A stretch of DNA of 32,000 nt from Candidatus Nitrospira inopinata (GTDB lineage: Bacteria; Nitrospirota; Nitrospiria; Nitrospirales; Nitrospiraceae). A program made the translations under genes and the position numbers. Shown here in pieces: positions 1,763 to 21,524 of this stretch. The notes beneath the pieces were generated by a model. That model had not been told where the DNA came from and did not search any database. It worked only from the letters and a program-made list of their open reading frames with translations. Location of the stretch: assembly GCF_001458695.1 (NCBI RefSeq), contig NZ_LN885086.1, positions 2,220,001 through 2,252,000 of the forward strand, given 5' to 3'. Position 1 is the stretch's first letter; the number at the start of each line of letters is the position of its first letter.

Positions 1763-1818
1763 CGCGCCGCGCGGGACTTTGCGCATCAGCTTTGCGCGGA
1801 AAGAAAGCCGAGCCTTCC

Positions 1819-4715: not shown

Positions 4716-4721
4716 CCGGGC

Positions 4722-5273
4722 ATGATGGCCATGGCCGAGGAAACGGGCGGTCCCCGTGGATACCCGAACGATTCAACCGACGCCGATGAACTCCGGAGAC
4801 TGCGAGCGCATCAACGGGCATGGCGGGCGGTCGCTTCGTGCGCCGTGCGCCTCATTCCGATCTTGAATGAAGAAATGGCGTCCGTCACTCGGATGACCGA
4901 ACGCGCCGCGATGGAACTCGGAGCCCATCTTCAAGCATTGGCGGCAACGGAGGTTTCATCGCATCAAAAAGAACGCGCGGCAAGCGTTTCAAAAATCGTC
5001 ATGGCGCTGCAGTTTCAGGATATCGTCGGTCAAAAGTTGAACCATGTCGGCAAGGCGTTGAATGAGTGGCGCGGTCACCTGGATGACCTGCTTGACGCGA
5101 CTCAAGGCGAACGCGCGGCGGACCGGCTCGCGGACGTGGAAACGATCGAACGGAACCTGATCGCGATGGAGGTGCGGTGCTCCGATGTCTCGGCGTTGAA
5201 AGTTGCCGACCAAGAGCCTCCGGCGGACCGCGCGGCGCCGCCTCGGGCAACCGAATCGGTCACGCTGTTTTGA
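4722..5273 (+). CDS. minimal CheZ-like protein (candidate second CheY-P phosphatase)
   Basis: VTRMTERAAMELGAHLQAL aligns with E. coli CheZ VVQMTAQAAERALNSVE. KIVMALQFQDIVGQKLNHV (nt 5007-5033) keeps the catalytic D-x3-Q spacing of the CheZ FQDLTGQ box. It ends in ...ESVTLF. It lies directly upstream of a second cheY. Confidence 0.5.
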   Translation: MMAMAEETGGPRGYPNDSTDADELRRLRAHQRAWRAVASCAVRLIPILNEEMASVTRMTERAAMELGAHLQALAATEVSSHQKERAASVSKIVMALQFQDIVGQKLNHVGKALNEWRGHLDDLLDATQGERAADRLADVETIERNLIAMEVRCSDVSALKVADQEPPADRAAPPRATESVTLF

Positions 5274-5340
5274 GTGAGCCAATCGTCAGGACGGCAAAAT
5301 GCCTTGAAAAACCTGACCGTTGAAATCGGAGGATGAAAAG

Positions 5341-5709
5341 ATGGGAAAAACCGCGCTCGTCGTCGATGATTCGCCCACCATGCGCCAGATGGTCGCCTTC
5401 ACGCTCATGAACGCGGGGTTCACGGTGATCGAAGCCGAGCACGGAAAGGACGCCGTCAGGAAAATCGCCGGCAAAAAGATGGACATCGTCGTGACGGATC
5501 TCAATATGCCGGAGATGGACGGCATCGCGCTGATCAAGGAGCTGCGAAAGTCGGCCGATTTTAAGTACACCCCGATTCTGATGCTGACGACCGAATCAGC
5601 GGTCGAAAAAAAGATGGCGGGAAAGGAAGCCGGGGCCACCGGGTGGATCGTGAAACCGTTCAATCCGGACGTGTTGCTCGGCACGATCGCCAAAGTGCTG
5701 CCGGCGTAA
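5341..5709 (+). CDS. cheY: CheY-like single-domain response regulator (second CheY)
   Basis: Receiver motifs ALVVDDS, VVTDLNMPEMDG, LMLTTES and WIVKPF. ATG 5341 is 7 nt after GGAGGA. The ORF-track TTG 5320 is less likely. Confidence 0.9.
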   Translation: MGKTALVVDDSPTMRQMVAFTLMNAGFTVIEAEHGKDAVRKIAGKKMDIVVTDLNMPEMDGIALIKELRKSADFKYTPILMLTTESAVEKKMAGKEAGATGWIVKPFNPDVLLGTIAKVLPA

Positions 5710-5866
5710 CGGAAGAGTCGAGGCGCATCGCAGTTGCAAGGTATCGGTTTCCGGTTTCAAGAGAAGATCGGATGACGGCGCGGCGAAACGCTTGGGGCGC
5801 ACCGTCCGAACAACACCCGGTGCCTGAAGCAACTTTCAAAGCGGAGCTTGAGAGACAAGGCGGACG

Positions 5867-8044
5867 ATGAGCAACGATTTCGAGCAATTCCAAGACGCGT
5901 TTTTTGAAGAGGCGGCGGAACATCTCGCGATCGTCGAGGAAGGGCTGCTTCAGTTGGAGCAACGTCCCGAAGATCTTGATCTCTTGAACAAGATCTTTCG
6001 CTCGGCCCATTCGATCAAGGGCGCAAGCGGCATGTTCGGCTTCGACGCCGTCGCTCAGTTTACGCACAAGATGGAGACGCTCTTGGATCTTCTTCGGAGC
6101 GGCAAAAAAATCGTCACGCCGAGCGTCGCGGATTTGCTGCTCAAGTCCACGGACTGTCTGAAAACGTTGATGGAGGGAGTGAAACTCAATGCGCCCGTGG
6201 ACGAGAACGTCGTGCAACGGCTCTCGACCGAGCTGGCCGCCGTCAGCGCGGGGGAGGGCGAACGAGCATCCGCCTCGCCGACGCCGGTCGCCGAATCGCC
6301 CGCTTCCTCGTCGGGGAGCGCCTATGACATTCGCTGGACTCCGCCGGAATGGCTCTTTCGGCGCGGGCTCGATCCGCTGCAGATCTTCAAAGAACTGACC
6401 CGCATCGGGAGCCTCAGCCGCGTGAACGTCGATACGTCTCGGCTGCCGGACCTCAACGACGTGAATCCCGAGGCCTGTTATCTGTCCTGGACCATGCGGC
6501 TGGAAACCGCCGCGTCGCGGAAAGAGGTGGAATCGGTCTTTGAGTTCGTCCGGGAAGACAGCGAGCTTTCGATCGAAGCGGTCACGGCTTCAACGTTCGC
6601 GCCTGAGCCCTCAGGCGCGAACGTTCGGCGCGATCCCAAGAACGCGACGCTCGAAATTTCCGATGGCGGACCGAAGTCGATCGGCGAGATTTTAGTCGAA
6701 AGCGGGGCGGTCTCCAAAGAGGCGTTGGAGCGGGCGTTGTCTCAACAGAAGCGGGTCGGCGAGATTCTGATCGAACAGAAAGCGGCGACGCCCCAGCAGA
6801 TCGAGCAGGCTCTGCAAACGCAACGGCAGATGGAGGCCGCGGCGCAGGCCAAGAAGGCCGACACGACGTCCATCCGCGTCGACACCGCCAAAATCGACAA
6901 ACTGATCAATTTGGTCGGGGAGCTGGTCATCACGCAGTCGATGTTGAGCGATTTGGGAACCCGTTTTGAGATGGGACAGGTTCACGTTCTGCTGGAGCGC
7001 ATCGCGCAACTGGAGCGGAACACGAGGGAAATCCAAGAGCGGGTCATGAGCATCCGCATGGTTCCGATCGGGACGGCGTTCAGCCGGTTCCCCAGGCTGG
7101 TCCGCGATTTGGCCGGGAAATTGGGGAAAAAAATCAACTTGGTGCTGTCCGGCGAAGAAACCGAGCTGGACAAAACCGTCATCGAGGCGATCGGCGACCC
7201 CTTGACGCATCTGGTGCGCAACGCCGCGGACCACGGGCTGGAAACGCCGGAAGAGCGGCTGGACAACAACAAACCGGAGACCGGTGTCATCAAGCTGCAC
7301 GCGTTTCACGAAGGGGGCAGCATCTGCATCACCGTCGAAGACGACGGGCGCGGCTTGAATCGAGATAAAATCCTTGCCAAGGCCGTCAAACAGGGGCTGG
7401 TTTCGGACGGCGCCGCGTTGTCGGACGATCAAATCTACCCGCTGATCCTGAGGCCCGGTTTTTCGACCGCCGACAAGGTTTCCGATCTGTCGGGGCGCGG
7501 CGTCGGCATGGACGTGGTGAAACGCAATATCGAGTCGCTGGGTGGGACCGTCTCCATCAAGACGGCGTACGGCAAGGGAACGGCGTTTACGCTCAAACTG
7601 CCGTTGACGCTCGCCATTATCGAGGGCATGACGATTCGGGTCGGACGGGAAACCTACATCGTTCCGATGTTGTCGATTCTGGAATCGATTCAACCGAGGC
7701 CGGAGGCGGTGAAAACCGTCGTCGGAAAGGGAGAACTGATCGATGTGAGAGGAATCTATCTGCCGGTGGTTCGGCTGTACGACGTCTTCAACTTGAAGCC
7801 GGAACACGTCGATCCGGAGAAAGCCATTCTTCTGATCTTGGAAACGGAAGGCGAGCGGGTGGCGGTGATGGTGGACGAGATTCTCGGCCAGCAACAGGTG
7901 GTCATCAAGAGCATGGAGCAAAACTTCCGCAAGGTGCAAGGGATCGCGGGAGCCACGATTTTGGGCGACGGGACCGTCGGATTCATCTTGGACGTCCGCG
8001 GCCTGTTGGAAATCGCGCGTCAAGGAACGCCGATGGCCGCGTAG
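5867..8044 (+). CDS. cheA: chemotaxis histidine kinase CheA
   Basis: P1/Hpt with the phospho-His box FRSAHSIKGASGMFGF. Dimerisation and HATPase domains are present (HLVRNAADHG, EDDGRGL, GRGVGMDVV). The C-terminal CheW-like P5 shows LGQQQVVIKS and ILGDGTVGFILDV. 725 aa. Confidence 0.97.
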   Translation: MSNDFEQFQDAFFEEAAEHLAIVEEGLLQLEQRPEDLDLLNKIFRSAHSIKGASGMFGFDAVAQFTHKMETLLDLLRSGKKIVTPSVADLLLKSTDCLKTLMEGVKLNAPVDENVVQRLSTELAAVSAGEGERASASPTPVAESPASSSGSAYDIRWTPPEWLFRRGLDPLQIFKELTRIGSLSRVNVDTSRLPDLNDVNPEACYLSWTMRLETAASRKEVESVFEFVREDSELSIEAVTASTFAPEPSGANVRRDPKNATLEISDGGPKSIGEILVESGAVSKEALERALSQQKRVGEILIEQKAATPQQIEQALQTQRQMEAAAQAKKADTTSIRVDTAKIDKLINLVGELVITQSMLSDLGTRFEMGQVHVLLERIAQLERNTREIQERVMSIRMVPIGTAFSRFPRLVRDLAGKLGKKINLVLSGEETELDKTVIEAIGDPLTHLVRNAADHGLETPEERLDNNKPETGVIKLHAFHEGGSICITVEDDGRGLNRDKILAKAVKQGLVSDGAALSDDQIYPLILRPGFSTADKVSDLSGRGVGMDVVKRNIESLGGTVSIKTAYGKGTAFTLKLPLTLAIIEGMTIRVGRETYIVPMLSILESIQPRPEAVKTVVGKGELIDVRGIYLPVVRLYDVFNLKPEHVDPEKAILLILETEGERVAVMVDEILGQQQVVIKSMEQNFRKVQGIAGATILGDGTVGFILDVRGLLEIARQGTPMAA
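6677..6823 (+). other. two tandem MshEN/T2SSE_N-like 24-residue motifs inside CheA (between the P2-like region and P3)
   Basis: SIGEILVESGAVSKEALERALSQQ and RVGEILIEQKAATPQQIEQALQTQ were compared with the published MshEN consensus RLGxx(L/V/I)(L/V/I)xxG(L/V/I)(L/V/I)xxxxLxxxLxxQ. The spacer here is 1 residue rather than 5. Confidence 0.5.
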
Positions 8045-8071
8045 CGACATGGATCGGACGGGAGCGGAACC

Positions 8072-8419
8072 ATGGCGTTGATGATCAACGATCACTGCAT
8101 CGCCTGCGACGCCTGTTTGCCGGCCTGCCCCAACCAAGCGATCTTCGACAGGCGCAGCGCCGCCGAATCGAAAGGCTATCGTGTCGCGGGGCGATTGGGA
8201 ATCAAGGACGACATTTACGTCATCGCGCACGAACGGTGCACCGAGTGCGTGGGTCATTTCGAGGAGCCGCAGTGTATGTCCGTCTGTCCGATCGGCGAAT
8301 GTTGCGTGCCGGATCCGGAGCGGCCGGAGTCGCGCATCGTGCTGCTGGAACGGGCCCGTCGCCTCCATCCGAACAAGACGATCGATCAAGACAAGGTATG
8401 GGCTGGGGTCAGAGGATGA
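8072..8419 (+). CDS. YfhL-type 2x[4Fe-4S] ferredoxin
   Basis: MALMINDHCIACDACLPACPNQAI (CxxCxxCxxxCP) plus CTECVGHFEEPQCMSVCP (CxxCx8CxxxCP), as in E. coli YfhL. There is an ~18-aa insertion between the cluster motifs. It starts 27 nt after the cheA stop. Confidence 0.85.
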   Translation: MALMINDHCIACDACLPACPNQAIFDRRSAAESKGYRVAGRLGIKDDIYVIAHERCTECVGHFEEPQCMSVCPIGECCVPDPERPESRIVLLERARRLHPNKTIDQDKVWAGVRG

Positions 8420-8560
8420 CCGGGAGACGCGAAGAGGGCGTCAAGTTTCAGGAGGGGCATCCGAACGAATCAAGCGAGATGAGAGTGCGGAGGCGACGCG
8501 CAATATTCACGCAATTTTCTCGATCAGCCTCGGTGTGATCCGCAGGGGAAGGAGGAGCAG

Positions 8561-9076
8561 ATGGCGGCTGTAACGGCATTGGAAAGTTCGGTGAAGCAAC
8601 CGCACCAACCAAGCGGTGGGCACAGCGGCGCGGCGGACGGCAATCAATTGTTGACCTTCAAACTGGGCGACGAGCTGTACGGGGTGGATATTTTGCGTGT
8701 GCAGGAGATCAAGGGCTACACCACCGTCACCCGGATTCCCAACACCCCCGCCTATATCAAGGGCGTCATCAATCTCCGGGGCACGATCGTGCCGATCGTG
8801 GAGTTGCGGACGAAATTCGGAATGCCGACGATCGACGTGACCTCGTTCACCGTCATCATCGTGGTGGTCGTGCGGGAGAAGGTGATGGGGCTGGTGGTGG
8901 ACGCGGTCTCCGACGTGCTGACCATTGATCGGCAGGACATTCAGGCGCCGCCGGCCTTTGGGTCCAGGGTGGATGTGAGTTGCCTGAGCGGGATCGCCAA
9001 ATCGGGCGACAAACTGGTGGCGTTGTTGGATATCGATCGCCTGTTGGCGGACGGCGCCGCGGCGGACGGGGGATGA
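8561..9076 (+). CDS. cheW: chemotaxis coupling protein CheW
   Basis: LLTFKLGDELYGVDILRVQEIKGY, PAYIKGVINLRGTIVPIVELR, MGLVVDAVSDV and KLVALLDIDRLL. RBS GGAAGGAGGAG upstream. Confidence 0.95.
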   Translation: MAAVTALESSVKQPHQPSGGHSGAADGNQLLTFKLGDELYGVDILRVQEIKGYTTVTRIPNTPAYIKGVINLRGTIVPIVELRTKFGMPTIDVTSFTVIIVVVVREKVMGLVVDAVSDVLTIDRQDIQAPPAFGSRVDVSCLSGIAKSGDKLVALLDIDRLLADGAAADGG

Positions 9077-9204
9077 CAGATCTCGCTCCCTTATCGGATG
9101 CGGCATGGACGGGAGTCTGAGGAGAGCCGAAGCGTCTCTTCGGGTCAGGCGCAGAGACTGCGTCGCCCCGAGGAAGCGTGTCTTCGAGCAAAAGAGAGGA
9201 CAAT

Positions 9205-11625
9205 ATGCGGAACCTATTTGGGAGGAACATGAGAGGCATGAAAAATTTGAAAGAGTACGGTCAAGCTGCCGATCGCACGCAGGCCGTGCTCGAACTGGCC
9301 CCTGACGGGACGGTGGCGGCGGCGAATGATCGGTTTCTGATGCTCACGGGCTATGCCCTCGACGACATCAAGGGAAGGCATCACCGTCTCTTCTTCGACC
9401 AGGCGGAGGCGGACAGTCCGGAATATCGCGCGCTGTGGGAGCGGGTGCGTCGGGGTGAGGCCGAATCCCGAGTGATGAAATGGGTCGGCCAGAGCGGCAA
9501 GGCCGTTTGGCTGGCCGCCTCCTTGCTCCCGCTGGACGGGGGAGATCAGCCGAGGAAGATCCTCGTGGTCGCGACCGATGTGACGGCGCTCGCCACGGAG
9601 CTGGAAACGGTCAAGGAAGAACTCGCCGTCCGCCGGGCCATCATGGATCTCACCGGTGTCGTGTCGGAGGCTGATCTCAAGGGCAACATCATATACATCA
9701 ACGACTACTTTTGCCGGCTTTCCAAGTACAGTCGAGAAGAACTGCTGGGCACACCGCACAACATCGTACGGCATCCGGACATGCCCAAAGAGGTCTTCAA
9801 GCAGATGTGGGCCACGATTGGCCGGGGGCAGATCTTTCGGGGGGTGGTCAAGAACCGGGCCAAGGACGGCACCCCCTATTACGTGGACGCCGTCATTGCG
9901 CCGTTCGTGGACAAACAGACCGGCAAGCCCAAAAAGTATCTCGGCGTCCGCTACGACATCACCCAGTATGAGATGCAACGCCACAACATGCAGGGACTCA
10001 TGGACGCGATCAATCGGGCCTATGCCGTGATCGAGTTTCAGTTGGATGGCACGATTCTCACGGCCAATGACAAGTTTCTCACCACCACCGGCTATACCCT
10101 GGAGGAGATCCGGGGCCGGCACCATCGGCTCTTCTGCGACCCGGTGTATGCCGCCAGTCCGGACTATGCGGCGTTCTGGCAGAAGCTGGGGCGGGGGGAG
10201 TTCGAGGCGGGGGTCTATCGGCGGCTGGGCAAGGGGGGGCAAGAAGTGTGGCTGCAGGCCTCCTATAACCCCGTCAAGGACGAGATGGGCCGGCCGTTTA
10301 AGGTGGTGAAATTGGCGACGGACATCACGGCGCAGAAGCAGGCGCAAGCGGAAGTGGAACGGTTGATCAAAGCGGCCGCCGACGGGCATCTGTCCGACCG
10401 CATCGCGCTCGAACGTTTCGAGGGATCGGCCCGGGAACTGGTGGCCAGTTTCAATCAGTTGCTCGATGCCGTGGCCACGCCGCTTGCGGAGGTGCAGGCG
10501 GTGATGACGGCGGTGGGGGAAGGCGATCTCACCAAGCACATGACCGGCGACTATCGCGGAGACTTTGCCTCGATCAAAACCAGCACCAACACGGCCGTGG
10601 ATCAATTGACGCAGATGATCAGCACGGTGCGGGAAGCGGTGGAATCGGTCCGTTCCGGCTCGGAGCAGATCACCCAGGGGAGCGATGATTTGGCGCAGCG
10701 GACGAGCGAGCAGGCGTCGGCGTTGGAGGAGACGTCGGCGTCGATGGAGGAGATGACGGCGACGGTGAAACAGAACGCGGACAATGCGCGGCAGGCGGAG
10801 CAGTTGGCGCAGGCGGCGCGGGAGACGGCGGACAAGGGGGGGGTGGTGACGCAGCGGGCGGTGGCGGCGATGCAGGCGATTAATCAGAGCAGTGCGCAGA
10901 TTGCGGAGATCATCACGGTGATTGATGAGATTGCGTTTCAGACGAACCTGTTGGCGCTCAACGCGGCGGTCGAGGCGGCGCGGGCGGGGGAGCATGGGCG
11001 GGGGTTTGCGGTGGTGGCGGCGGAGGTGCGGAATTTGGCGCAGCGGTCGGCGACGGCGGCGAAGGAGATCAAGGGGTTGATTCAGGCGTCGCTCTCGCGG
11101 GTGACGGAGGGCAGTGCGTTGGTGAATCAGGCGGGCAAGACGTTGGAGGAGCTGGTGCAGGCGGTCAAGCGGGTGACGGACATCATGGCGGAGATCAGCG
11201 CGGCCAGTCAGGAGCAGGCGAGCGGGATCGAGCAGGTGAACAAGGCGGTGATGGCCATGGACGACACCACCCAGCAAAACGCCGCCCTCGTCGAACAACT
11301 CACCAGCGCCAGCCAGTCGCTCAAGATGCAGGCGGACGATTTGCTCCGGCGCGTGCAGAAGTTCACCTGCCGCGTCACCGAAGAGCAAAAGGCCCGTATG
11401 CCGGAGATCGACAACCTCAGAAAATCCGTCGCCGGCTCGGTGCATCGTGTCTATGGGGGAAAAAAAGGATCATCGACTCAGGGCTCCAGTCGCGTGTCAA
11501 CGACGACGACAGGGCTTGCCGATAGCCAAGACCTCGATGAGACCCCGATGGCCGAGACCGGCGCTGGAATCGGAGCGGGCGCTCATCGGCCTGAGAAAAA
11601 CATCGATGACTTTGAGGAGTTCTGA
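9205..11625 (+). CDS. soluble multi-PAS methyl-accepting chemotaxis protein (PAS, Aer-type PAS, PAS, HAMP, MA)
   Basis: No TM segment. It has three PAS modules, two of them with the GRHHRLF signature. A HAMP-like segment ([22 protein letters not shown]) is followed by the MA domain ([41 protein letters not shown]). It ends in DDFEEF. ATG 9205 follows GAGAGGA; GTG 9178 is possible. Confidence 0.95.
9637..9966 (+). other. Aer-type (FAD-binding class) PAS domain within MCP 9205-11625
   Basis: [54 protein letters not shown] closely parallels E. coli Aer [52 protein letters not shown]. Confidence 0.7.
10028..10346 (+). repeat. PAS-coding block duplicated in the downstream MCP gene (copy A)
   Basis: Aligns without gaps to 12983-13301 (offset 2955 nt). 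I counted roughly a dozen mismatches by eye, about 96% identity. Confidence 0.9.
10683..11318 (+). repeat. 636-bp MA-domain block nearly identical in the downstream MCP gene (copy A)
   Basis: Aligns without gaps to 13521-14156 (offset 2838 nt). Only two differences were seen (aaa/aag and agt/agc), both synonymous. The flanks diverge abruptly. Confidence 0.95.
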
Positions 11626-11642
11626 GCGCGTCAACGTGCGTG

Positions 11643-11664
11643 CAGGACATGGGCAGGACATGGG
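11643..11664 (+). repeat. perfect 11-bp tandem direct repeat (caggacatggg x2) in the mcp-mcp intergenic region
   Basis: Read directly: tgCAGGACATGGGCAGGACATGGGattg, ~80 nt upstream of ATG 11743. Confidence 0.8.
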
Positions 11665-11742
11665 ATTGATCAGACACGCAACCGGACGTAACGGATTTGT
11701 ACCCCGCGCAACTCGACGGGTCAGTTTACCGGAGGGAGGCCT

Positions 11743-14397
11743 ATGCTGAACCGATTCCTGAACTTGAGCATCAAATCCAAGCTGCTCGTTGCTTGCGGGA
11801 TTTCCGGCATCATGCTCGTGATGCTCGGGGGCATGGCCTTTTTCGGCATGAATCGCCTCAGCGGTCAGACGGAATTCATCTATAAAACGAACGTCAATTC
11901 GTTGATGTTGTTGAGCGATCTGCGCGCGGATTTGGCGCGCCGATCGAATCACGTTCTCTGGCACATTTTGGCGCAGGATCCCGCCGCCATGAAGGAACAG
12001 GAGCGGAAGATCCATGACCTTGACCAAACGATCGAACGGCTGACGGAACAGTACGAGCCGCTCATCGTGACGGAATCCGAACGGGCGACCTATGACCGGC
12101 TCAAGAAGAGCGGCGCGGAGATCAAAGAAGCGCGCGAGAAGGTGTTGGCCTTGAGCAGAAGTTTCAAGAAAGAGGCGGCGGCGGACGTGCAGCGCACCGA
12201 GATGGCCGAGAAACTGGCCGAGCTCTTCCGAGCGGTTGATGGATTGGTCGAGGAAAATGACAAGCAGGCGAAAGAGAGCTACGCCGCCAGTCTGAGTCTC
12301 AGCGCCACCCTGAATTGGACCTTGATCGCGTTGAACCTCGGGGCCTTGTTGATCGGGGCCTGGGCGTTGCGGTTCGTGTCGAACATCATCGTTGAGAACC
12401 TCACAAACGTCTTGGATGCGGCTCAGCAGCTCCAGCAGGGCCATCTGACCCACCGGGCCACCGTAGCGACGGGAGATGAAATCGGAAAATTGGCGAGATC
12501 ATTCAATCAGATGGCCGAGACGTTGCAGCAAGCCGCAGTCAAGCAGGAAGAGGCCCTCAAGGCCCAAGCGGCCGAGCTCAATGGCATGACCAGAGCCATC
12601 GATCGGGCGCAGGCCGTGATCGAGTTTGCTGTGGACGGGACGATCCTCTCAGCCAACGAGAATTTTCTCGCCACCATGGGCTATAGCCTCGATGAGATCA
12701 AAGGTAAGCATCACCGGCTCTTCTGCGAGCCGGCCTCTGCTCAGAGCCGGGAATACGCAGATTTTTGGGAAAAACTGAGCCGAGGAGAAGTACAAGCTGG
12801 TGTCTATCGTCGGGTAGGCAAGGGAGGCAAAGAGGTCTGGATTCGGGCCTCATACAGCCCGATCAAAGATGCAAATGGCAAGGTTTCAAAGATTGTTGAA
12901 TTTGCGACCGACATCACGGCGGAACAGAAACGCCAAGCCGAGTTCGAGGGACTGCTCAGCGCCATCAATCGTCAATACGGCATGATCGAGTTTCAGTTGG
13001 ATGGCACGATTCTCACGGCCAACGACAAGTTTCTCACCATCACCGGCTATACCCTGGAGGAGATCCGGGGCCGGCACCATCGGCTCTTCTGCGACCCGGG
13101 GGATGCCGCCAGTCCGGACTATGCGGCGTTCTGGCAGAAGCTAGGGCGCGGGGAGGCGGAGGCGGGGGTCTATCGGCGGCTGGGCAAGGGGGGGCAAGAA
13201 GTGTGGCTGCAGGCCTCTTATAACCCCGTCAAGGACGAGATGGGCCGGCCGTTTAAGGTGGTGCAGTTGGCGACGGACATCACGGCGCAGAAGCAGGCGC
13301 AGGTGGAGTTGGAGGCCTGCATGGCCGAGGCGCGAGAGGCGTTGGGGGCCGTGGCGGCGGGGGATTTGACCCGGCCGATGACGGGCACCTACGGAGGGGA
13401 GTTGGCCACGATCACGGCCAGTGTGAACGAGACCGTGGCGCAGTTGACGCGGACCTTGGCGGCGGTGCGGGGGGCGGTGGAGACGGTGACGGCGGGGGCG
13501 GAGGAGATCACCAAGGGCAACGATGATTTGGCGCAGCGGACGAGCGAGCAGGCGTCGGCGTTGGAGGAGACGTCGGCGTCGATGGAGGAGATGACGGCGA
13601 CGGTGAAGCAGAACGCGGACAATGCGCGGCAGGCGGAGCAGTTGGCGCAGGCGGCGCGGGAGACGGCGGACAAGGGGGGGGTGGTGACGCAGCGGGCGGT
13701 GGCGGCGATGCAGGCGATTAATCAGAGCAGCGCGCAGATTGCGGAGATCATCACGGTGATTGATGAGATTGCGTTTCAGACGAACCTGTTGGCGCTCAAC
13801 GCGGCGGTCGAGGCGGCGCGGGCGGGGGAGCATGGGCGGGGGTTTGCGGTGGTGGCGGCGGAGGTGCGGAATTTGGCGCAGCGGTCGGCGACGGCGGCGA
13901 AGGAGATCAAGGGGTTGATTCAGGCGTCGCTCTCGCGGGTGACGGAGGGCAGTGCGTTGGTGAATCAGGCGGGCAAGACGTTGGAGGAGCTGGTGCAGGC
14001 GGTCAAGCGGGTGACGGACATCATGGCGGAGATCAGCGCGGCCAGTCAGGAGCAGGCGAGCGGGATCGAGCAGGTGAACAAGGCGGTGATGGCCATGGAC
14101 GACACCACCCAGCAAAACGCCGCCCTCGTCGAACAACTCACCAGCGCCAGCCAGTCCATGAAAGTCCAGGCCCAAGAACTGCTGCGACATATCGAGGTTT
14201 TCAAGTTCAATGAAACGGGAAGGCGTCACGACCGTCAGGACGGGGGCTCCAAGGCTCAGGATAAAGAGCCGATGACCGGCGGCTCTTTCCATGGGGCCGT
14301 GGATCGAGCGGTGTCGCGGTCGCAAGAGCCCGTGGGTGTCGCCGGGCAGACCGACAGGAGCCGATCCGTTGGGTCTGAGGAGTTCGATGAGTTTTAG
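11743..14397 (+). CDS. transmembrane methyl-accepting chemotaxis protein (4HB-type periplasmic sensor, HAMP, PAS, PAS, HAMP-like, MA)
   Basis: TM1 is [24 protein letters not shown] helical ~150-aa periplasmic region follows, then TM2 [27 protein letters not shown] shows [18 protein letters not shown]. Two PAS modules carry GKHHRLFC and GRHHRLFC. The MA domain protein sequence is identical to the upstream MCP over 212 aa. It ends in EEFDEF. RBS GGAGGGAGG. Confidence 0.95.
12983..13301 (+). repeat. PAS-coding block (copy B of 10028-10346)
   Basis: See copy A. Confidence 0.9.
13521..14156 (+). repeat. 636-bp MA-domain block (copy B of 10683-11318)
   Basis: See copy A. Confidence 0.95.
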
Positions 14398-14469
14398 GGA
14401 TTTTTCAGGAATTGATTGATCGGCCGGTGTCGTATCCATGGACGAAGATGTAAAGAACAGGAGGAAGCC

Positions 14470-14844
14470 ATGGTTCACAAAGAAGAGATTATGAAAGCCA
14501 TCAGTGCGCACGGTCTGTGGAAAAGCCGTTTGACCCGGGCGATTGAAACAGGAAAAACGGATGCGACGGTCGAAACGGTTCGTGCCGATAATCAGTGCGC
14601 GTTCGGCAAATGGCTCCATGGCATGACGTTGGATGCCAAGGACAAACTGTCGCCCCATTACAAAGAAGTCCGAGCGTTGCACGCCAAGTTCCATGAGGTC
14701 GCCTCTCATGTGTTGGAGTTGGCGTTATCGGGGAAAAAACAAGAGGCGCAGCGATTGCTCTCGCTTGACGGAGAGTACGCCAAGGTGTCGTCACAACTCA
14801 CGACCGCCATGTCCGCGTGGACCAAGAGCCTGCCGGCGCAGTGA
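14470..14844 (+). CDS. stand-alone CZB (chemoreceptor zinc-binding) domain protein
   Basis: AHGLWKSRL ... DNQCAFGKWLHG ... HYKEVRALHAKFHEVASHV is the His/Cys signature and four-helix pattern of CZB domains, as in H. pylori TlpD and E. coli DgcZ. ATG 14470 follows AGGAGGAAG. The ORF-track start 14416 is an extension. Confidence 0.75.
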   Translation: MVHKEEIMKAISAHGLWKSRLTRAIETGKTDATVETVRADNQCAFGKWLHGMTLDAKDKLSPHYKEVRALHAKFHEVASHVLELALSGKKQEAQRLLSLDGEYAKVSSQLTTAMSAWTKSLPAQ

Positions 14845-14932
14845 GAGGCGTTTTCGGAACCGTCGATGGGTTCGGTTTTCCTGCGTGCCCGGGTCGGGAC
14901 GGATCGGTGTTCGGTTGTGCTCCGGGAGAGGC

Positions 14933-15751
14933 ATGATGTACTCGATTACGCGGGACGAATTTCGTCGTTTTCAGAAATTGATCTACGATGAAAGCGGCAT
15001 CGCGCTCAATGATCAGAAGGAATCGTTGCTCGTCTCTCGCCTGATGAAACGATTGCGCGAGTTGGGCGTGGACACCTTCTCGGAGTACTACGAGAAGGTC
15101 ACCGGCGATCCTACGGGGGAGGAATTCACGAAGCTGCTCGATTGCGTCTCGACGAACAAGACCGACTTTTTTCGCGAGCCGAGACATTTTGCGTTTCTGC
15201 GGGAGCAGATCCTTCCTCAGTTGGAGCGCGACAAACGCGTTCGGATCTGGTCGTCGGCCTGTTCGACGGGCGAGGAGCCCTACACCATCGCGATCACGCT
15301 CTACGAAGGCGTTCGGGACCCGGCGCAATGGGACTTCAAAATTTTGGCTTCCGACCTGTCCACGCGCGTCCTGGCAAGGGCGGCCTCCGGCGTCTATGAG
15401 GAAGAACGATTGCGCGACGTCGAGCCGGCCGTGCTGCGCCGGCATTTTCTCCGAGGGCGAGGAGAGCGGGAAGGGTTGTTCAAAATCAAACCCCATCTCG
15501 CGTCCGTCGTGCGATTTCGGCGGATCAATCTCATGGACGATCAATTTCCCATCAAAACGCCGCTCGACGTCATTTTTTGCCGCAACGTCATGATCTATTT
15601 CGATCGTCCGACGCAAGAGCAGCTCGTCAACAAGTTTCATCGGTACCTCAAGCCGGGCGGATATCTGTGCATCGGCCATTCGGAGAGTCTCCAGTGGGTT
15701 CGCCACCCCTTCAAGTTAGTGGCTCCGACGATTTATCGGAAGGAGTTGTGA
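14933..15751 (+). CDS. cheR: chemotaxis protein methyltransferase CheR
   Basis: N-terminal helical domain (FRRFQKLIYDESGIAL) and SAM-MTase motifs TDFFREPRHF, RIWSSACSTGEEPYTIAI and IFCRNVMIYFD. The ATG at 14933 follows GGGAGAGG. The ORF-track start 14633 overlaps the CZB gene and is rejected. Confidence 0.93.
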   Translation: MMYSITRDEFRRFQKLIYDESGIALNDQKESLLVSRLMKRLRELGVDTFSEYYEKVTGDPTGEEFTKLLDCVSTNKTDFFREPRHFAFLREQILPQLERDKRVRIWSSACSTGEEPYTIAITLYEGVRDPAQWDFKILASDLSTRVLARAASGVYEEERLRDVEPAVLRRHFLRGRGEREGLFKIKPHLASVVRFRRINLMDDQFPIKTPLDVIFCRNVMIYFDRPTQEQLVNKFHRYLKPGGYLCIGHSESLQWVRHPFKLVAPTIYRKEL

Positions 15752-15756
15752 CCAGC

Positions 15757-16380
15757 GTGGCTTCAGTCGAGGGAGAAGAATTCCGTCACATTCGCCGCAT
15801 GCGGGACGAGCGATTTCCCCATGAAATCGCGGCGATTTTGCCTGGTGAATTCTTCGTCAGCAGAGACCCGATGATCGTCTACACGGTCCTCGGTTCCTGT
15901 ATTTCGGCCTGTATTCGCGACCCGATCGTCGGGGTCGGAGGAATGAATCACTTCATGCTGCCCGAGCCCAAAGACGCCGCCACCGATTCCTGGGGCGAGT
16001 CCACGCGCTATGGATCGTTCGCGATGGAGTCGTTGATCAACGAAATCCTTAAGCGGGGAGGCGTCAAGAGCAGGCTGGAGATCAAGCTGTTCGGCGGAGG
16101 GAGAATTTACGAGGGCGGTGCGGATATCGGGGGCAGAAACGCCGAGTGGGTGCTCAATTTTCTCGAGCAGGAGGGGCTGGTTCCCTCGAAGGCCGATCTC
16201 GGAGACGTGTTTCCACGGAAAGTCTATTACTTCACCGATTCAGGCCGAGTGCTCGTGAAAAAGATCGAGCGGCTCAAGAATCGCACGATCATGGATCGCG
16301 AGTCGGAGTATGCCGCCAAAATACGAACTGCAATACAAACCGATCGACAGGGAGCGGCGGACGCGGTCACGTTGTTTTAG
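15757..16380 (+). CDS. cheD: chemoreceptor glutamine deamidase CheD
   Basis: [45 protein letters not shown] is the catalytic Cys/His region of CheD. The start is GTG 15757 or 15748, immediately after the cheR stop (15749-15751). The ORF-track start 15577 lies inside cheR. Confidence 0.88.
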
Positions 16381-16469: not shown

Positions 16470-17549
16470 ATGGCGAAAATTCGCGTTCTGACGATCGATG
16501 ACTCGGCGCTCATGCGGCAAGTGTTGGCGGCGTTGTTGTCGCATGATCCGGAGATTGAAGTGGTCGGATCGGCGCCGGACCCCTACATCGCCCGAGAAAA
16601 AATCAAGGCCTTGAATCCCGACGTCCTGACCTTGGATGTCGAGATGCCCAAGATGGACGGGCTGACCTTCCTTGAGAAATTGATGCGAGGCCATCCGATG
16701 CCGGTCGTCATGGTGAGCACCTTGACCGAAGCCGGTTGCGAAACCACTCTGCGGGCGCTCGAACTCGGCGCGGTCGATTTCATCACCAAACCGAAAATCG
16801 ACGTTCAAAAGGGTATGAGCGACGTCGCGCAAGACTTGATCGACAAGGTCAAATCCGCCGCGTGCGCGAAGGTGAGGAGCAAGGGATCGGAGGCGAGGGG
16901 ACAGTCGGGCTTCGAAGCATTTCCCCCCGCTTCGCATCCCTCAGGCCTCGCGCCTCAAGGGGCGATGCTCAAAACGACCGATACGATCATCGCCATCGGC
17001 TCGTCGACCGGAGGAACCGAAGCGGTGAAGGACATTCTGACGGCGCTTCCGGCTCACACACCACCCATTCTGATTACGCAACATATGCCGCCCCGGTTTA
17101 CTCGGACATGGGCTGAGCGGCTGAATAGCCTGTGCCGCATCTCCGTCAAGGAGGCGGCGGACGGCGACAGTGTGCTGCCGGGCCACGCTCTGGTAGCCCC
17201 AGGAGGGTATCACATGGTCTTGGACCGCAATGGCGCCCGTTACACGGTTCGGGTTAACCAGGATCCGCCGGTGAATCGGCATCGACCGTCGGTCGATGTG
17301 TTGTTCGATTCGGTAGCGAAATACGCGGGCCGCAACAGCATCGGAGTGATTTTGACGGGAATGGGAGGCGATGGAGCCAAGGGGTTGCTGGCCATGAAGC
17401 AGGCGGGCGCTTCGACGATCGCGCAGAACGAGGCAAGCTGCGTGGTTTTCGGCATGCCGAAAGAGGCCATCAAGCTCGGCGGGGTGGACAAGGTGCTTCC
17501 GCTCGGCGACATTGCCGGTGCGGTGATGGAGTGTGTCGGGCGGCAGTGA
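16470..17549 (+). CDS. cheB: chemotaxis methylesterase/deamidase CheB (REC plus esterase)
   Basis: REC motifs: [38 protein letters not shown]. Esterase motifs: [34 protein letters not shown] 16470. Confidence 0.95.
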
Positions 17550-17580: not shown

Positions 17581-17931
17581 ATGGCGTTGCAAGTACGGGA
17601 GCGTTCCATGCCCAACGGGGTGATCCTTGAGTTAGCGGGGGATCTGACCTATGCGAACCGCGAACAATTCAAGACGGCCGTGGAGTCGGTTCGCCAGCGG
17701 GGGGTCCGGCATCTGGTGTTGGATATGTCGAGTGTGCGGTTCATCGACAGTTCCGGCCTGGGACTGTTGGCGCTGGTGGCCCAGCAATTCAAATTGACGC
17801 AAGGACGGTTGAGTTTGTTGAAGCCCCAGGCGTACGTGCGGGAAATCATGGCGCTGGCCAACATTCCGTCGTTGATCCCCATGTACGAAAGCGAGCAGGA
17901 TGCCGTGGCCTCCTGTGCGAAAGCGGCGTAG
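17581..17931 (+). CDS. STAS-domain anti-sigma-factor antagonist (SpoIIAA/RsbV family)
   Basis: VILELAGDLTYANREQFKTAV, HLVLDMSSVRFIDSSGLGLLAL (the conserved phosphorylatable Ser lies in DSSGLG) and LSLLKPQAYVREIMAL. ATG 17581 follows AAGGAGG. Confidence 0.85.
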   Translation: MALQVRERSMPNGVILELAGDLTYANREQFKTAVESVRQRGVRHLVLDMSSVRFIDSSGLGLLALVAQQFKLTQGRLSLLKPQAYVREIMALANIPSLIPMYESEQDAVASCAKAA

Positions 17932-17971
17932 GGACGCAGGAGTGTTTTGATGCCGAAACAAGCGAGACACG

Positions 17972-19201
17972 ATGAAGCCATCTTGTCCTCACGATGATCC
18001 GATCGGCCGGTCTGGAGCCGCCGAGGAGACAGCCGTCAAGGAGCGCCAGACGGTGCTCATCGTGGATGACGATCCGGTGGCCCGCTTGGCCATGACCGGC
18101 AGGGTGAAACGGCTCGGTTACCGCGTCCTTGAAGCCGCCGATGGGCGAAGCGGTCTTGAACTCCTCCGGCGTGAGCGGCCGGAACTGACCATTTTGGATT
18201 GGATGATGCCCGATCTGGACGGACCGTCGTTTTGTGAGCAGGTGCGCGACGATCCAGAGGTCGGCTCAAGCCAAATCCTCATGATGACGAGCAACGATCA
18301 CCCCGAACACATCGCGGAGGGGTTGGCGCGCGGGGCGGATGATTTTTTAAGCAAGGCGGCGAGCCGTCAAGAGATCATCGCCAGGGTCCAGGCCGGGATC
18401 AGAGCGGCGCTGTTGATTCGTCAGTTGGAACAGGTCACGGACGAGTTGCGGAGCAAACAGGCGTTGTTGGACGAGGAGCTACAATCGGCCGCCCGCTATG
18501 TGGAATCTCTTTTGCCGATGCCGGGCATCGTGCTCCCCGGCGTCGAACTGGCTCATCTCTACCGTCCTTCGCTGGCGCTGGGCGGTGATTTGTACAACGT
18601 CGTTCGATGTGGCGATGACTCAGTGGGACTCTATTTGCTCGATGCCTCTGGACACGGGGTGTCGTCGGCCCTTCGGTCCGCCGCTCTTGCCACGTTTCTG
18701 CGGGAGGACAGTCTGCTGCGTTACGTCGGCTCTCGCGATCCCGGCGCCATTGTGACGGAGGCCAACCGGCTGTTTCCCCTGACGGAACGGGGCGACTATT
18801 TCACGATTCTCGTCGCGCGGCTGGATCTGCGATTTCAGCGGCTGCTCTATGCCACGGCCGGTCACTCCGGAGCTTGTGTTCATCGGCGGGGGGGAACGAT
18901 GGAATGGTTTGTGCCGCCCAGCCTGCCCTTGGGATTTGCCCCGGGTCAGCGCTATCGCACCGTGGAGATCGGTTTTCTGCCCGGCGACCGCTTGTATGTG
19001 ATGAGCGATGGCCTCTATGAAATTCCCAATTCGACCGGAGAACTGTGGGGCAAAGAGCGACTGGGGTTCGCTTTGAAAGAGGCAGCCGGCCGACCATTGC
19101 AGGATGCCCTGTCTCATGCTGTTGCGGAGGCGGCGCGATGGTCCGGTCAGAATTGCTTTCCGGACGACGTGGCGGTGATGGGGATTGAGCTGAAGGCATG
19201 A
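17972..19201 (+). CDS. response regulator with PP2C/SpoIIE-type serine phosphatase output (RsbU-like)
   Basis: The REC domain is intact: LIVDDD, ILDWMMPDLDG, LMMTS, FLSKA. A coiled linker follows, then the PP2C domain: LGGDLYNV, YLLDASGHGVSSAL, YATAGHS, YVMSDGLYE, DDVAVMGIEL. Confidence 0.9.
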   Translation: MKPSCPHDDPIGRSGAAEETAVKERQTVLIVDDDPVARLAMTGRVKRLGYRVLEAADGRSGLELLRRERPELTILDWMMPDLDGPSFCEQVRDDPEVGSSQILMMTSNDHPEHIAEGLARGADDFLSKAASRQEIIARVQAGIRAALLIRQLEQVTDELRSKQALLDEELQSAARYVESLLPMPGIVLPGVELAHLYRPSLALGGDLYNVVRCGDDSVGLYLLDASGHGVSSALRSAALATFLREDSLLRYVGSRDPGAIVTEANRLFPLTERGDYFTILVARLDLRFQRLLYATAGHSGACVHRRGGTMEWFVPPSLPLGFAPGQRYRTVEIGFLPGDRLYVMSDGLYEIPNSTGELWGKERLGFALKEAAGRPLQDALSHAVAEAARWSGQNCFPDDVAVMGIELKA

Positions 19202-19238
19202 CGGCGTGTGCCATGAATCGAGGTCGGCGAGGTGACGG

Positions 19239-19598
19239 ATGAATCGTAATACCGTGTTTGATCTCCGGGAGGCGCTGAGTCGTATTGATGATGACCGCGA
19301 GACGCTTCACGCGATGATCGAGGTGTTCTTGGAGCAAGGTCCTCAGGATCTGGCGGCGGTTCGAGAGGCGTTGGATCGGCGAGATGCGGCCGCCGCGGCG
19401 CGATTCGCTCATCGATTAAAAGGATCGGCCCTTCAGTTTTGCGCGGATGCGGCGGTGGAGGCGGCGAAGGCGGTGGAAGCGGCGGGAAAAGGCGGCGACG
19501 TGGAAGAAACGGACAGACTGTTTCGGAAACTCGAAACCGAGGCGGCCCGCCTCTTCGAGGCGCTTCGCGCGGAGTTGGGCGGGGACCTGGCGGCATGA
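19239..19598 (+). CDS. single-domain histidine phosphotransfer (Hpt) protein
   Basis: 119-aa all-helical protein with the Hpt box FAHRLKGSALQFCA. GAGG sits 6 nt upstream of ATG 19239. Confidence 0.8.
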   Translation: MNRNTVFDLREALSRIDDDRETLHAMIEVFLEQGPQDLAAVREALDRRDAAAAARFAHRLKGSALQFCADAAVEAAKAVEAAGKGGDVEETDRLFRKLETEAARLFEALRAELGGDLAA

Positions 19599-20494
19599 AG
19601 ACGGAACGATCGTCCTGCAGGGTGTTGCTCGTGGATTCTTCCCGCGATCTTCAGGCGGATCTGGCCCGTGACGCCGAGCGGCTGGGGTTCACGTTGATTG
19701 CGGCATCAGGTCCGTCGGAGGCGGTGGCCTCGTTTGAACGGGAAGTCCCCGACGTGGTGATCACCGATTTATTCTCGTCCGATGAAGCCGGCCTCGCCTT
19801 GATTGAAGAGCTGAGAAGTCGCGGCGAAACCTGCCCCGTGGTCGTGATCGCGGCGGAGGCGTCGGGGGCCATGGTCGCCAAGGCGTTCCGCGCGGGGGCG
19901 ACGGATTATCTGCAAAAGCCGATCATCACGGAAGAGTTCACCCGCGTGCTGACCCGTGTTCGGCGCGTGGCGGCTCGGGCCGCGGCTCCGCTGCCCGGTT
20001 TGCTGACGTTCGAGCAGCGGCTCGTTCTGGCAAGCGACGTGAGCTTCGTTGAAGAAACGGTCCTCTGGTTGATACAGATGACGGCCATGATGGTGCCGGA
20101 GACGGCGCGAGCGGGCCTGCGCGGCGCGCTTCAGGAGTTGCTTCTCAACGCCGTGGAACATGGGAATCTTGAAATTTCCCATGAGGAGAAAAAACTCGCG
20201 GTGGCGGAAGGCCGATATGACCGCTTGCTGTCGGAGCGATCGGCCCGGTCGGCGCTCAGAGGTCGATGCGTCATCGTGGAAGTCTCCTACGACGCTGGAG
20301 CGCGTCGACTAAAGTATCGCGTTGCCGACCAAGGAGGGGGATTCGATTGGCGGGCGATGGTGGCGAAGAAGCCGGGCCTGGATGGATCGGTGGAGGGAAG
20401 CGGACGAGGGGTATTGCTCATACGGTCCCTGTTTCCCGATCTCTGCTATAACGAGCGGGGCAACGAGGCAACGTTTACGGTTCCTCTCGATTAG
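19595..20494 (+). CDS. receiver domain fused to an RsbW/SpoIIAB-like HATPase serine kinase (anti-sigma-type kinase)
   Basis: REC motifs: RVLLVDSS, VVITDLFSSDEAG, VVVIAAEAS, YLQKP. The C-terminal GHKL ATPase shows N box ELLLNAVEHGN, G1 VADQGGGFD and G2 GSGRGVLLIRSL. ATG 19595 overlaps the Hpt stop (ATGA). The ORF-track start 19439 lies inside the Hpt gene. Confidence 0.75.
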   Translation: MKTERSSCRVLLVDSSRDLQADLARDAERLGFTLIAASGPSEAVASFEREVPDVVITDLFSSDEAGLALIEELRSRGETCPVVVIAAEASGAMVAKAFRAGATDYLQKPIITEEFTRVLTRVRRVAARAAAPLPGLLTFEQRLVLASDVSFVEETVLWLIQMTAMMVPETARAGLRGALQELLLNAVEHGNLEISHEEKKLAVAEGRYDRLLSERSARSALRGRCVIVEVSYDAGARRLKYRVADQGGGFDWRAMVAKKPGLDGSVEGSGRGVLLIRSLFPDLCYNERGNEATFTVPLD

Positions 20495-20570: not shown

Positions 20571-21524
20571 TCAAAACACCCGTAGATATTTGACGGTGCA
20601 GTGGCCTTTGTCCGCGTCTCGGTGCAAGACGACGAAGGCGTTCTTGACCGATTCATTGACCGTGATGGTGAGCCGGGCCGAAAAATAGTCGCTCTTGACG
20701 TCGTACACGGACCCGGATGCGCGCAACTTGGCGCCGATGTCCACGAAGCTCCCGATGCGGTTCAACTCCTCTTTGGTTTTGTAGGGGCGCCCCTGCACGA
20801 TTTCCGAGGCCATCGTCGGCGTGATGTCCGGGTCGAGAGCCTGGATGACGGCCGGCTCGGCCGTGTTGATGTTCACCGGCGCGCCGCCTTCGATCGGGTA
20901 CACGGTGACGTAGCGCGCGAGCCGATCGATGATGTCGGGCGTAAACCCTTTGATCAGCCGTAAATCGTTGATCGCCTGGAGCGGGCCGTTGGCGGCCCGA
21001 TAGGCGGGCCGCAACGATTGGTAGTGCAGGCTTTCCGCGCCGGTCGGTCTTGGGTTGTCATCCTGATCGAGCCAATCGATCAGGGCGTCGACCAGGTCGG
21101 GATTGATCTGAAGCAATTCGAAGAGCCGACGGATTCGGTCGATGCGGGTTTTGGATTGGATCGGGTCGTCGGCGGAAGCCACAAGATCGTTGAGATTCAG
21201 TTTGCCGCGCTCGTCCTGAATTTGGGCGCTCAACAATCCGTCGCCGATCGCGTAATTCTTGATCGGGAGCGCCCACAGGTCGAGCGGGCCGTCGAACCGT
21301 TCGCCGCTTCGTTTGTCGCGCAAAAAATCCCGTTGAAGAGCCGCGCTCGCCGCTTGAATGGCCGCGCGCGTCAACGTGCCGGACTTGACATGGTCGCGGA
21401 ACGCGGCCGCTTCGCGGTATTCGCGCCGCGCTTCCGCGTCGAATTCAAGAACGATCGCCGTCAGGAGCGCCAGCGCAAGCAGGGCAAGCAGCAGCGCGAT
21501 TCCTCGTTCATCGGCTTTTCGCAT
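20571..21524 (-). CDS. gspK: type II secretion minor pseudopilin GspK
   Basis: N-terminal RGIALLLALLALALLTAIVL lacks Glu at +5, as in GspK. Also AQIQDERGKLNLNDL, TGAESLHYQSLRPAYRAANGPLQAINDLRLIKGFT and PVNINTAEPAVIQAL. Confidence 0.85.
   Translation of the reverse strand: MRKADERGIALLLALLALALLTAIVLEFDAEARREYREAAAFRDHVKSGTLTRAAIQAASAALQRDFLRDKRSGERFDGPLDLWALPIKNYAIGDGLLSAQIQDERGKLNLNDLVASADDPIQSKTRIDRIRRLFELLQINPDLVDALIDWLDQDDNPRPTGAESLHYQSLRPAYRAANGPLQAINDLRLIKGFTPDIIDRLARYVTVYPIEGGAPVNINTAEPAVIQALDPDITPTMASEIVQGRPYKTKEELNRIGSFVDIGAKLRASGSVYDVKSDYFSARLTITVNESVKNAFVVLHRDADKGHCTVKYLRVF

Follow-up and report, generated by a model that had tools for sequence, protein, structure and literature searches.

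A 32-kb stretch of the genome of Candidatus Nitrospira inopinata (contig NZ_LN885086.1, positions 2,220,001 to 2,252,000 of the forward strand), which we refer to as the window and in which positions are counted from its first nucleotide, contains a motility and chemotaxis gene cluster that ends with four genes encoding a STAS protein, a response regulator combining a receiver (REC) with a PP2C phosphatase, a stand-alone histidine phosphotransfer (Hpt) protein and a kinase-like protein with a receiver of its own. These genes probably constitute a partner-switching serine-phosphorylation module of the HptB-HsbR-HsbA or RsbY-RsbV-RsbW type, in the form of a conserved cassette that concludes the motor/chemotaxis cluster of Nitrospira. 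Our genome data cover the 32 kb of the window, and partners encoded at a distance, for instance hybrid kinases, sigma factors or FlgM, would be located beyond this coverage. A literature search retrieved no publication that describes the cassette in Nitrospira.

All four genes are located on the forward strand. The gene of the STAS protein, which is of the anti-sigma-antagonist type (17581..17931, 116 residues, Pfam STAS E 2e-20), is preceded by a strong Shine-Dalgarno sequence (AAGGAGG) and begins after a gap of 31 nucleotides downstream of cheB (16470..17549, +, start codon read), the last classical che gene, which encodes a REC and a methylesterase domain (Pfam CheB_methylest E 1e-67). It is followed, after 40 nucleotides, by the gene of the REC-PP2C protein (17972..19201, 409 residues, Response_reg 9e-25, SpoIIE 6.5e-35), with its receiver at about 18053-18391 and its PP2C domain at about 18614-19192, and, after another 37 nucleotides, by the Hpt gene (19239..19598, 119 residues, Pfam Hpt E 1.3e-12). 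The stop codon of the latter overlaps in an ATGA with the start of the gene of the kinase-like protein (19595..20494, 299 residues, Response_reg 1.2e-16, HATPase_c_2 1.4e-12), in which a degenerate receiver (about 19622-19945) precedes an RsbW/LvrC-type GHKL serine-kinase/anti-sigma domain (about 20075-20479). For none of the four proteins does NCBIfam contain an equivalog. The short intergenic gaps hold no promoter- or terminator-like site in scans that were themselves uninformative, with results at or below shuffled expectation, and co-transcription of the cassette with cheB is thus plausible. On the other side, the position of gspK (20571..21524, −, Pfam T2SSK), the first gene of a convergent type II secretion operon outside of the module, marks the 3' limit of its transcription unit.

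The STAS protein matches TIGR00377 (ant_ant_sig) above the family cutoff and its phospho-acceptor position Ser57, which is part of the motif FIDSSGLG, aligns on Ser58 of SpoIIAA (structures 1TH8 and 1AUZ), with the Asp-Ser of the motif being invariant in 21 STAS sequences. In the receiver of the PP2C protein, the alignment reveals the canonical quintet DD..D..T..K, and the metal-binding motifs of the phosphatase domain (LGGDL, LDASGHG, SDGLYE as a variant of SDGxYE, and PDDVA) are conserved in 21 orthologues. The best relatives of this protein in the PDB are RssB of P. aeruginosa, SiaA and SpoIIE. The Hpt protein carries an H-x-L-K-G motif whose His, Lys and Gly are invariant in 20 sequences, the histidine being located within AHRLKGS. 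In the kinase domain, the N box (E181/N185/H189) and the G1 (D245-x-G-x-G) and G2 (G270-R-G) motifs show no variation across 60 aligned homologues and 25 of 25 locus sequences and, since every ATP-binding motif is retained in this way, the domain does not, by its sequence, correspond to the dead ATPase fold that was contemplated in an initial annotation of the window. This annotation, which was made from the letters and their open reading frames (ORFs), had described four co-directional genes behind cheB with the gaps and the overlap given above, a STAS protein that keeps its phosphorylatable serine, a PP2C/SpoIIE phosphatase with an intact receiver, a lone Hpt protein and a GHKL serine-kinase-like protein, all of which agrees with the ORF coordinates, the Pfam assignments of STAS, REC and SpoIIE, Hpt, and REC and HATPase_c_2 domains and the conservation of key residues. 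The motifs it had listed (FIDSSGLG, AHRLKGSA, NAVEHGN, DQGGGFD and GRGVLL) are all found in the translations.

The kinase-like protein belongs to a family with a structurally characterized member, the protein LvrC of Leptospira, whose structure was deposited under the name 'SenB' (PDB 9QIH). Both proteins are related end to end (phmmer 2e-15 for residues 9-296, with an identity of about 23%). A profile of the kinase domain searched against the PDB retrieves 9QIH with 1.7e-23 followed by RsbW (6M36, E 9e-5), and a Foldseek search with an AlphaFold2 model of the entire protein (predicted local distance difference test score of 85.6) ranks 9QIH first with an E of 4e-20. LvrC is described as combining a Rec domain with an anti-sigma domain of the Bergerat fold that resembles RsbW/SpoIIAB, and it is phosphorylated by the histidine kinase LvrB (PMC13269768). 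An assignment as SiaB/SiaC-type kinase is unsupported, as the kinase retrieves LvrC and, as next match, RsbW from the PDB but not SiaB, and SiaA appears solely as a relative of the PP2C protein. In an exhaustive profile search of 1.84 billion representative proteins, we find about 12,000 matches at E<=1e-30, with about 100 of the best 150 being full-length proteins of about 290-330 residues, and scanning GTDB with one genome for each species reveals at least 600 loci in many phyla. The size of the family and the existence of a characterized member thus indicate that receiver-bearing partner-switch kinases are common in nature, and a kinase with its own receiver is not unusual but belongs to a large family of proteins of about 300 residues with a solved structure.

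The best homologues of the REC-kinase protein all originate from Nitrospira. Among the matches listed in the GTDB scan, there are 24 Nitrospira/Nitrospiraceae loci (L001-L024), onto which we have mapped the window proteins by tblastn and ORF extraction, with start codons of orthologues being chosen automatically. The order STAS, REC-PP2C, Hpt, REC-kinase is found in 21 of 21 loci with enough flanking sequence, at kinase identities ranging from 77% down to 37%, and this four-gene arrangement is far beyond chance. Of 22 loci, 17 preserve the 4-nucleotide overlap (ATGA) of Hpt stop and kinase start, and in these 17, as in the window, phosphatase and kinase are the products of two distinct ORFs that flank the Hpt gene. 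The neighbourhood described initially, directly behind cheB, is shared by 15 of the 21 loci, whereas in three others (L006, L009 and L018) the four genes are located behind motAB. In most Nitrospira lineages (L004, L006, L009, L010, L012, L013, L015-L021 and L024; for example L006:7586-7936), the STAS gene is immediately preceded by another STAS paralogue that likewise contains the Asp-Ser motif, and the lineage of the window, together with L001 and L002, has a single STAS gene. One metagenome-assembled genome contains, besides the cassette in L007, a second and apparently degraded copy (L027:500-2200), with a frameshifted REC-PP2C gene, a kinase domain with a non-receiver N-terminus and no Hpt gene.

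In receivers, an aspartate at position 13 (in the numbering of CheY, which is used throughout) binds together with Asp 57 the Mg2+ that is needed for phosphotransfer, and a threonine at position 87 links the phosphoryl group with the output face. We have aligned the receiver of the kinase-like protein with E. coli CheY, the other four receivers of the window and LvrC, and find aspartate at position 12, serine at 13, aspartate at 57, alanine at 87 and lysine at 109 (D-S-D-A-K), so that this receiver is not intact. The call at position 13 rests on alignments but is anchored by the adjacent β1 strand VLLVD, and three independent alignments agree. In 22 Nitrospira orthologues, position 13 is never occupied by aspartate but instead by proline in 15, by serine in 3 (as also in the window) or by glycine, alanine or glutamate, position 12 wanders between D, N, E, S, G, H and V, and position 87 is occupied by A, S, G, T or I. 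Conversely, Asp 57 is kept in all except one and Lys 109 is retained in most. The canonical signature [D/E]D-D-[T/S]-K is found in 50 of 56 members of the same family from outside of Nitrospira and in LvrC. The degeneration is also manifested in the rate of change. When conservation is expressed as mean pairwise identity within the Nitrospira set, the receiver of the PP2C protein shows with 72% the highest value in the cassette, followed by the STAS protein (65%), the PP2C domain (58%), the kinase domain (54%) and the Hpt protein (48%), while the receiver of the kinase is with 46% the least conserved and fastest-evolving part. Its fold is retained, as the AlphaFold2 model displays a clean (βα)5 domain. 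The most economical reading of these sequence features is that of an atypical, largely phosphorylation-independent receiver that has arisen within the Nitrospira clade. The Rec domains of LvrC contribute to dimerization in the crystal via their α4-β5-α5 surfaces (PMC13269768). Since the aspartate at position 13 is absent in all 22 orthologues and the threonine switch is variable, conventional phospho-gating of the kinase is doubtful, and the earlier proposal that both enzymes are gated by receivers thus stands for the phosphatase with its canonical receiver but is questionable for the kinase. A similar degeneration, in which the phospho-acceptor aspartate is changed to asparagine, is found in the kinase receiver of a locus from Syntrophaceae (L052), as a parallel to Nitrospira.

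The initial annotation had further proposed that the cassette receives its input from the adjacent CheA, in a relay proceeding from CheA via a receiver to Hpt and on to a receiver, which gates phosphatase and kinase and thereby lets chemoreceptor input set the phosphorylation of the STAS protein. Such a relay would be in line with the location of the cassette 31 nucleotides behind cheB with no terminator-like site in between and its equivalent placement in 15 of 21 loci, with the location of kinase relatives next to cheA, cheW or cheB in other phyla (L037, L044, L052 and L071) and with the presence of two receivers and one Hpt, which is the minimal parts list of a relay. Chemosensory clusters with partner-switch outputs do exist, as illustrated by crsR/crsA inside the che1 locus of Shewanella (PMC9855816). 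We nevertheless consider this relay unlikely. One of its two receivers lacks the aspartate at position 13 in all 22 Nitrospira orthologues and varies at position 87, and the neighbourhood of the cassette points in a different direction. In the three motAB-linked loci, the cassette directly follows motA-motB, with no cheA, cheR, cheD or cheB in between. The gene order in L006 is fliD, fliS, fliT-like, GGDEF, PilZ, ParA-like (on the opposite strand), cheY, motA, motB, STAS, STAS, REC-PP2C, Hpt, REC-kinase, and cheA and cheB are absent from the 7.6 kb upstream of the cassette. The conserved neighbourhood is hence the flagellar/motor cluster and not CheA as such.

A hint on the origin of the phosphoryl group is provided by a divergent Nitrospiraceae locus (L014), where the slot of the Hpt gene is occupied by a hybrid kinase of 1030 residues with the organization PAS-HisKA-HATPase-REC-REC-Hpt (L014:6912-10004), which has STAS and REC-PP2C as neighbours to one side and REC-kinase to the other, che genes being absent nearby. 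The window Hpt shares 36% identity with the C-terminal Hpt of this hybrid kinase (E 3e-23), compared to 29% over 51 residues with the P1 domain of the window's own CheA (E 1e-3), and it thus resembles in its sequence the hybrid-kinase type rather than the CheA-P1 type. The same comparison disfavours the idea of a freed CheA P1 domain that would be phosphorylated in trans by CheA. Together, the motAB loci, the hybrid kinase of L014 and the similarity of the Hpt proteins argue for a route as in the case of HptB, leading from the receiver of a hybrid kinase to Hpt and from there to the receiver of the PP2C protein, and they make the adjacent CheA a weak candidate for an obligatory donor.

From the domain identities, residue conservation, synteny and family relations, we infer phosphotransfer steps, a direction of regulation and an output that would jointly operate as follows. 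The RsbW/LvrC-like kinase would phosphorylate Ser57 of the STAS protein using ATP and the PP2C domain would strip the phosphate from the same residue. The regulated step would be the phosphatase, whose canonical and highly conserved receiver would be phosphorylated by Hpt, leading to a change of phosphatase activity. Hpt itself would be charged from the receiver or receivers of one or several hybrid histidine kinases encoded elsewhere, as is the case for HptB in Pseudomonas, with the kinase in L014 still being fused to its Hpt. The receiver of the kinase would most likely act as phosphorylation-independent regulatory or dimerization domain that possibly docks the co-translated Hpt. Finally, the phosphorylation state of the STAS protein would select a partner encoded outside of the window and thereby switch motility-related behaviour, with candidates being a sigma factor that the kinase domain holds, or, as targets of the free STAS protein, a FlgM-like protein, an enzyme or CheA. 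Both known systems proceed in a comparable manner. In the first, HptB phosphorylates the REC of HsbR, activating its PP2C, and dephosphorylated HsbA then binds FlgM (PMC6482189; PMC8256260), and HsbA in its phosphorylated form binds the diguanylate cyclase HsbD (PMC6482189). In the second, from B. cereus, the REC-PP2C protein RsbY is phosphorylated by RsbK, and its phosphatase, which becomes active in this way, acts on RsbV/RsbW (PMC4574943).

Several observations weigh against this mechanism. The cassette is located directly behind cheB in 15 of 21 loci, and CheA could therefore be a donor that phosphorylates the canonical receiver of the PP2C protein directly. Within the 32 kb of this genome that were covered, no hybrid kinase without its own Hpt was found. 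Asp 57 and Lys 109 of the kinase receiver are still mostly conserved, so that some phosphorylation or Hpt-dependent chemistry might take place at this site. Finally, no potential partner in form of a sigma factor, FlgM or a diguanylate cyclase is present in the window, and Pfam scans of the 32 kb detect no sigma or anti-sigma genes elsewhere in it, as already noted in the initial annotation.

With respect to the output, we regard it as possible, though not as probable, that the REC-kinase acts mainly as anti-sigma factor for a sigma factor encoded elsewhere, with the STAS protein as antagonist and PP2C as activator, in the manner of a classical RsbU/V/W system with an output in transcription. 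This would be compatible with the core of the proposed mechanism and differ in the output alone. It is consistent with the similarity of the kinase protein to LvrC over its entire length and of its domain to RsbW. LvrC is proposed to hold a sigma factor (PMC13269768), and the kinase domains of CrsR and HsbR sequester RpoS (PMC6482189). Conversely, a sigma factor gene, which in partner-switching systems usually accompanies the other genes, is absent from the window and was not found beside the cassette in the inspected loci L005, L006 and L013, and related STAS proteins act on targets other than sigma factors, including FlgM and HsbD (PMC6482189), CheA (PMC12654446) and a glycosyltransferase in the case of the HenR system of Anabaena (PMC13555669).

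The interaction with CheA refers to the CheS proteins of alphaproteobacterial che operons, which consist of a STAS domain only and which bind CheA and alter the flow of phosphate between CheYs (PMC12654446). As STAS genes are recurrent in several chemosensory classes (PMC9239204) and the window holds two pairs of CheY and CheZ-like proteins, the STAS protein might in an equivalent manner bind CheA or modulate CheY dephosphorylation, in which case the cassette would tune chemotaxis by an external kinase input instead of reading out CheA. We consider this very unlikely, as the protein keeps the phospho-serine of SpoIIAA and has a kinase and a phosphatase dedicated to it, and as the cassette is also maintained in loci without che genes next to it. 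Returning to the proposed partner switch, the flagellar context, the GGDEF and PilZ genes in L006 and the genes for a single-domain REC and a GT2 glycosyltransferase downstream of the cassette in L005 favour an output in motility or lifestyle, each as a hint that is not decisive.

In an extension of this mechanism, the pseudo-receiver of the kinase, instead of being a relic, could sense without being phosphorylated the Hpt protein whose gene overlaps with that of the kinase. Phosphorylated Hpt would hand its phosphate to the canonical receiver of PP2C and switch the phosphatase on, and Hpt would also bind the pseudo-receiver and modulate the kinase in a manner that depends on the phosphorylation of Hpt. 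Hpt would in this way drive both opposing enzymes reciprocally, a scenario to which we assign a decidedly small likelihood. In its most ambitious form, the chemoreceptor array would charge Hpt by way of a receiver phosphorylated by CheA and, if this was true, chemoreceptor occupancy would set a lifestyle switch in a nitrifier.

Outside of Nitrospira, most members of the kinase family are stand-alone. Within 56 such loci, we find about 10 with a PP2C within 4 kb, 7 with a STAS gene and none with a lone Hpt, in searches with tblastn and home-made hidden Markov models that can miss divergent STAS or Hpt genes in these organisms. One locus from Aminicenantes (L044) encodes STAS, CheA, Hpt-CheW and REC-kinase-PP2C proteins, another from SAR324 (L037) contains REC-kinase-REC-PP2C and STAS beside cheB...cheA, a third from Rhodospira (L071) a methyl-accepting chemotaxis protein (MCP) and REC-kinase-PP2C, and in the locus from Syntrophaceae (L052:487-2663) cheB, REC-kinase and PAS-PP2C are encoded by overlapping genes. 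The protein from SAR324 is a single chain of 734 residues with one receiver per enzyme (L037:9944-12148), and the STAS gene in this locus is located on the reverse strand (L037:12122-12469, −). The fused relatives in L037, L044 and L071, none of which is characterized, resemble the Nitrospira cassette in combining a kinase of the LvrC-type subfamily with a PP2C and in being located beside che or MCP genes and, in case of L037 and L044, near a STAS gene. Unlike in the cassette, both enzymes are part of one polypeptide, the receivers are canonical and a stand-alone Hpt is missing. A recent split of a fused HsbR-like gene as origin of the cassette is unsupported, as the order REC-kinase-PP2C of these proteins differs and their PP2C identity amounts to only 25-33%.

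The upstream run of motility and chemotaxis genes (1328..16380, +), as assigned by Pfam scans, begins with cheY-like, cheZ, motA and motB, continues with a gene of unknown type, another with weak similarity to cheZ, cheY and cheA, and then comprises a 4Fe-4S ferredoxin, cheW, two PAS-containing MCPs, a chemoreceptor zinc-binding (CZB) protein, cheR and cheD, behind which cheB follows. The two CheY/CheZ-like pairs flank motAB (1328-2418 and 4722-5709, +), one of them consisting of a cheY-like gene and a clear cheZ and the other of an ORF with weak similarity to CheZ (E 1.5e-4, short of the Pfam cutoff) and cheY. The small gene of the 4Fe-4S dicluster ferredoxin between cheA and cheW (8072-8419, +) is an unusual passenger of a che operon and may hint at a redox input to the array. 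The stand-alone CZB protein between the second MCP and cheR (14416-14844, +) is also found in L002. Downstream, a complete type II secretion operon (20571-30752, −) comprising gspK, M, L-like, J, I, G, F, E and C converges on the cassette. In 11 related loci, gspK is equally convergent and directly downstream, and elsewhere it is 4.5 kb away or absent; with its adjacency varying among loci, a functional tie between the cassette and type II secretion is unsupported. In L005, four genes, whose products are a single-domain REC, a protein with HEAT repeats, a β-barrel of the TPR/YaiO type and a GT2 glycosyltransferase of 604 residues, are inserted between the kinase gene and gspK (L005:10994-15360), which may link the cassette to exopolysaccharide. 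The same probably applies to L007, where the spacing between both genes is equivalent. The insertion found downstream of the cassette in L013 contains phosphate-uptake genes.

In contrasting the cassette with known partner switches, the initial annotation had overlooked the Hpt-containing HptB-HsbR-HsbA pathway and the split REC-PP2C/RsbW system of B. cereus. The former, in P. aeruginosa (HsbR PA3346, HsbA PA3347), consists of the same parts encoded by clustered genes, namely an Hpt protein on its own, a receiver and a PP2C, an RsbW-like kinase/anti-sigma domain and a STAS protein that carries a phospho-serine. In P. putida, the hsbAR-hptB genes reportedly figure in a study of the flagellar gene cluster of that species. 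Whereas HsbR is a single REC-PP2C-kinase polypeptide, phosphatase and kinase of Nitrospira are separate, with an Hpt gene between them that overlaps the kinase gene, and the kinase, to which a further, degenerate receiver is attached, is a member of the LvrC-type subfamily with its about 35 residues inserted behind the N box. The RsbK-RsbY-RsbV-RsbW system of B. cereus shares the split, in that a REC-PP2C protein (RsbY) dephosphorylates the STAS protein RsbV in opposition to a separate kinase RsbW, and the input from a hybrid kinase (PMC4574943), but it contains no Hpt (PMC4574943), its RsbW is devoid of a receiver, sigB is located alongside and there is no link to motility genes. LvrC resembles the Nitrospira kinase in the combination of a REC with a Bergerat-fold RsbW-like domain, in its length of about 300 residues and in a match that includes the insertion after the N box, whereas its receiver is canonical and phosphorylated by LvrB and that of Nitrospira lacks the conserved residues at positions 13 and 87. 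The accessible part of its description mentions no STAS, PP2C or Hpt partner (PMC13269768). In the Che1 system of Shewanella oneidensis, the partner-switch pair CrsR-CrsA is located inside a locus with cheA, cheY, cheW, cheR, cheD, cheB and MCP genes and CrsR is a single regulator that includes an anti-sigma factor domain (PMC9855816), as a homologue of the REC-PP2C-kinase HsbR (PMC6482189). Unlike the Nitrospira cassette, this system is without Hpt, it targets RpoS, and Che1 is of the non-motility class F7, compared to a cluster with motAB in Nitrospira. The split between REC-PP2C and RsbW, a partner switch embedded in a che locus and STAS genes in che clusters are thus already known, and the cassette is not a new kind of signalling device. 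What is new is this combination and its genus-wide conservation, the translational coupling of the Hpt and kinase genes and the clade-specific decay of the receiver pocket in the kinase.

Members of Nitrospira are the main nitrite oxidizers and include complete ammonia oxidizers in soils, waters and treatment plants, where they live largely in aggregates and biofilms. For signalling biology, the cassette offers a clear case of a kinase that has stayed intact although, within a single clade, the receiver attached to it has lost the pocket for phosphorylation. As a natural split version of the HsbR/CrsR regulator, it would allow the phosphatase and kinase arms to be studied separately. LvrC-type REC-anti-sigma proteins co-occur with STAS and PP2C partners in several phyla, and the missing partner of LvrC may therefore be a STAS antagonist. 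In Nitrospira itself, a cassette that is found throughout the genus at the genes for motor and chemotaxis could plausibly control the decision between a motile and an attached life.

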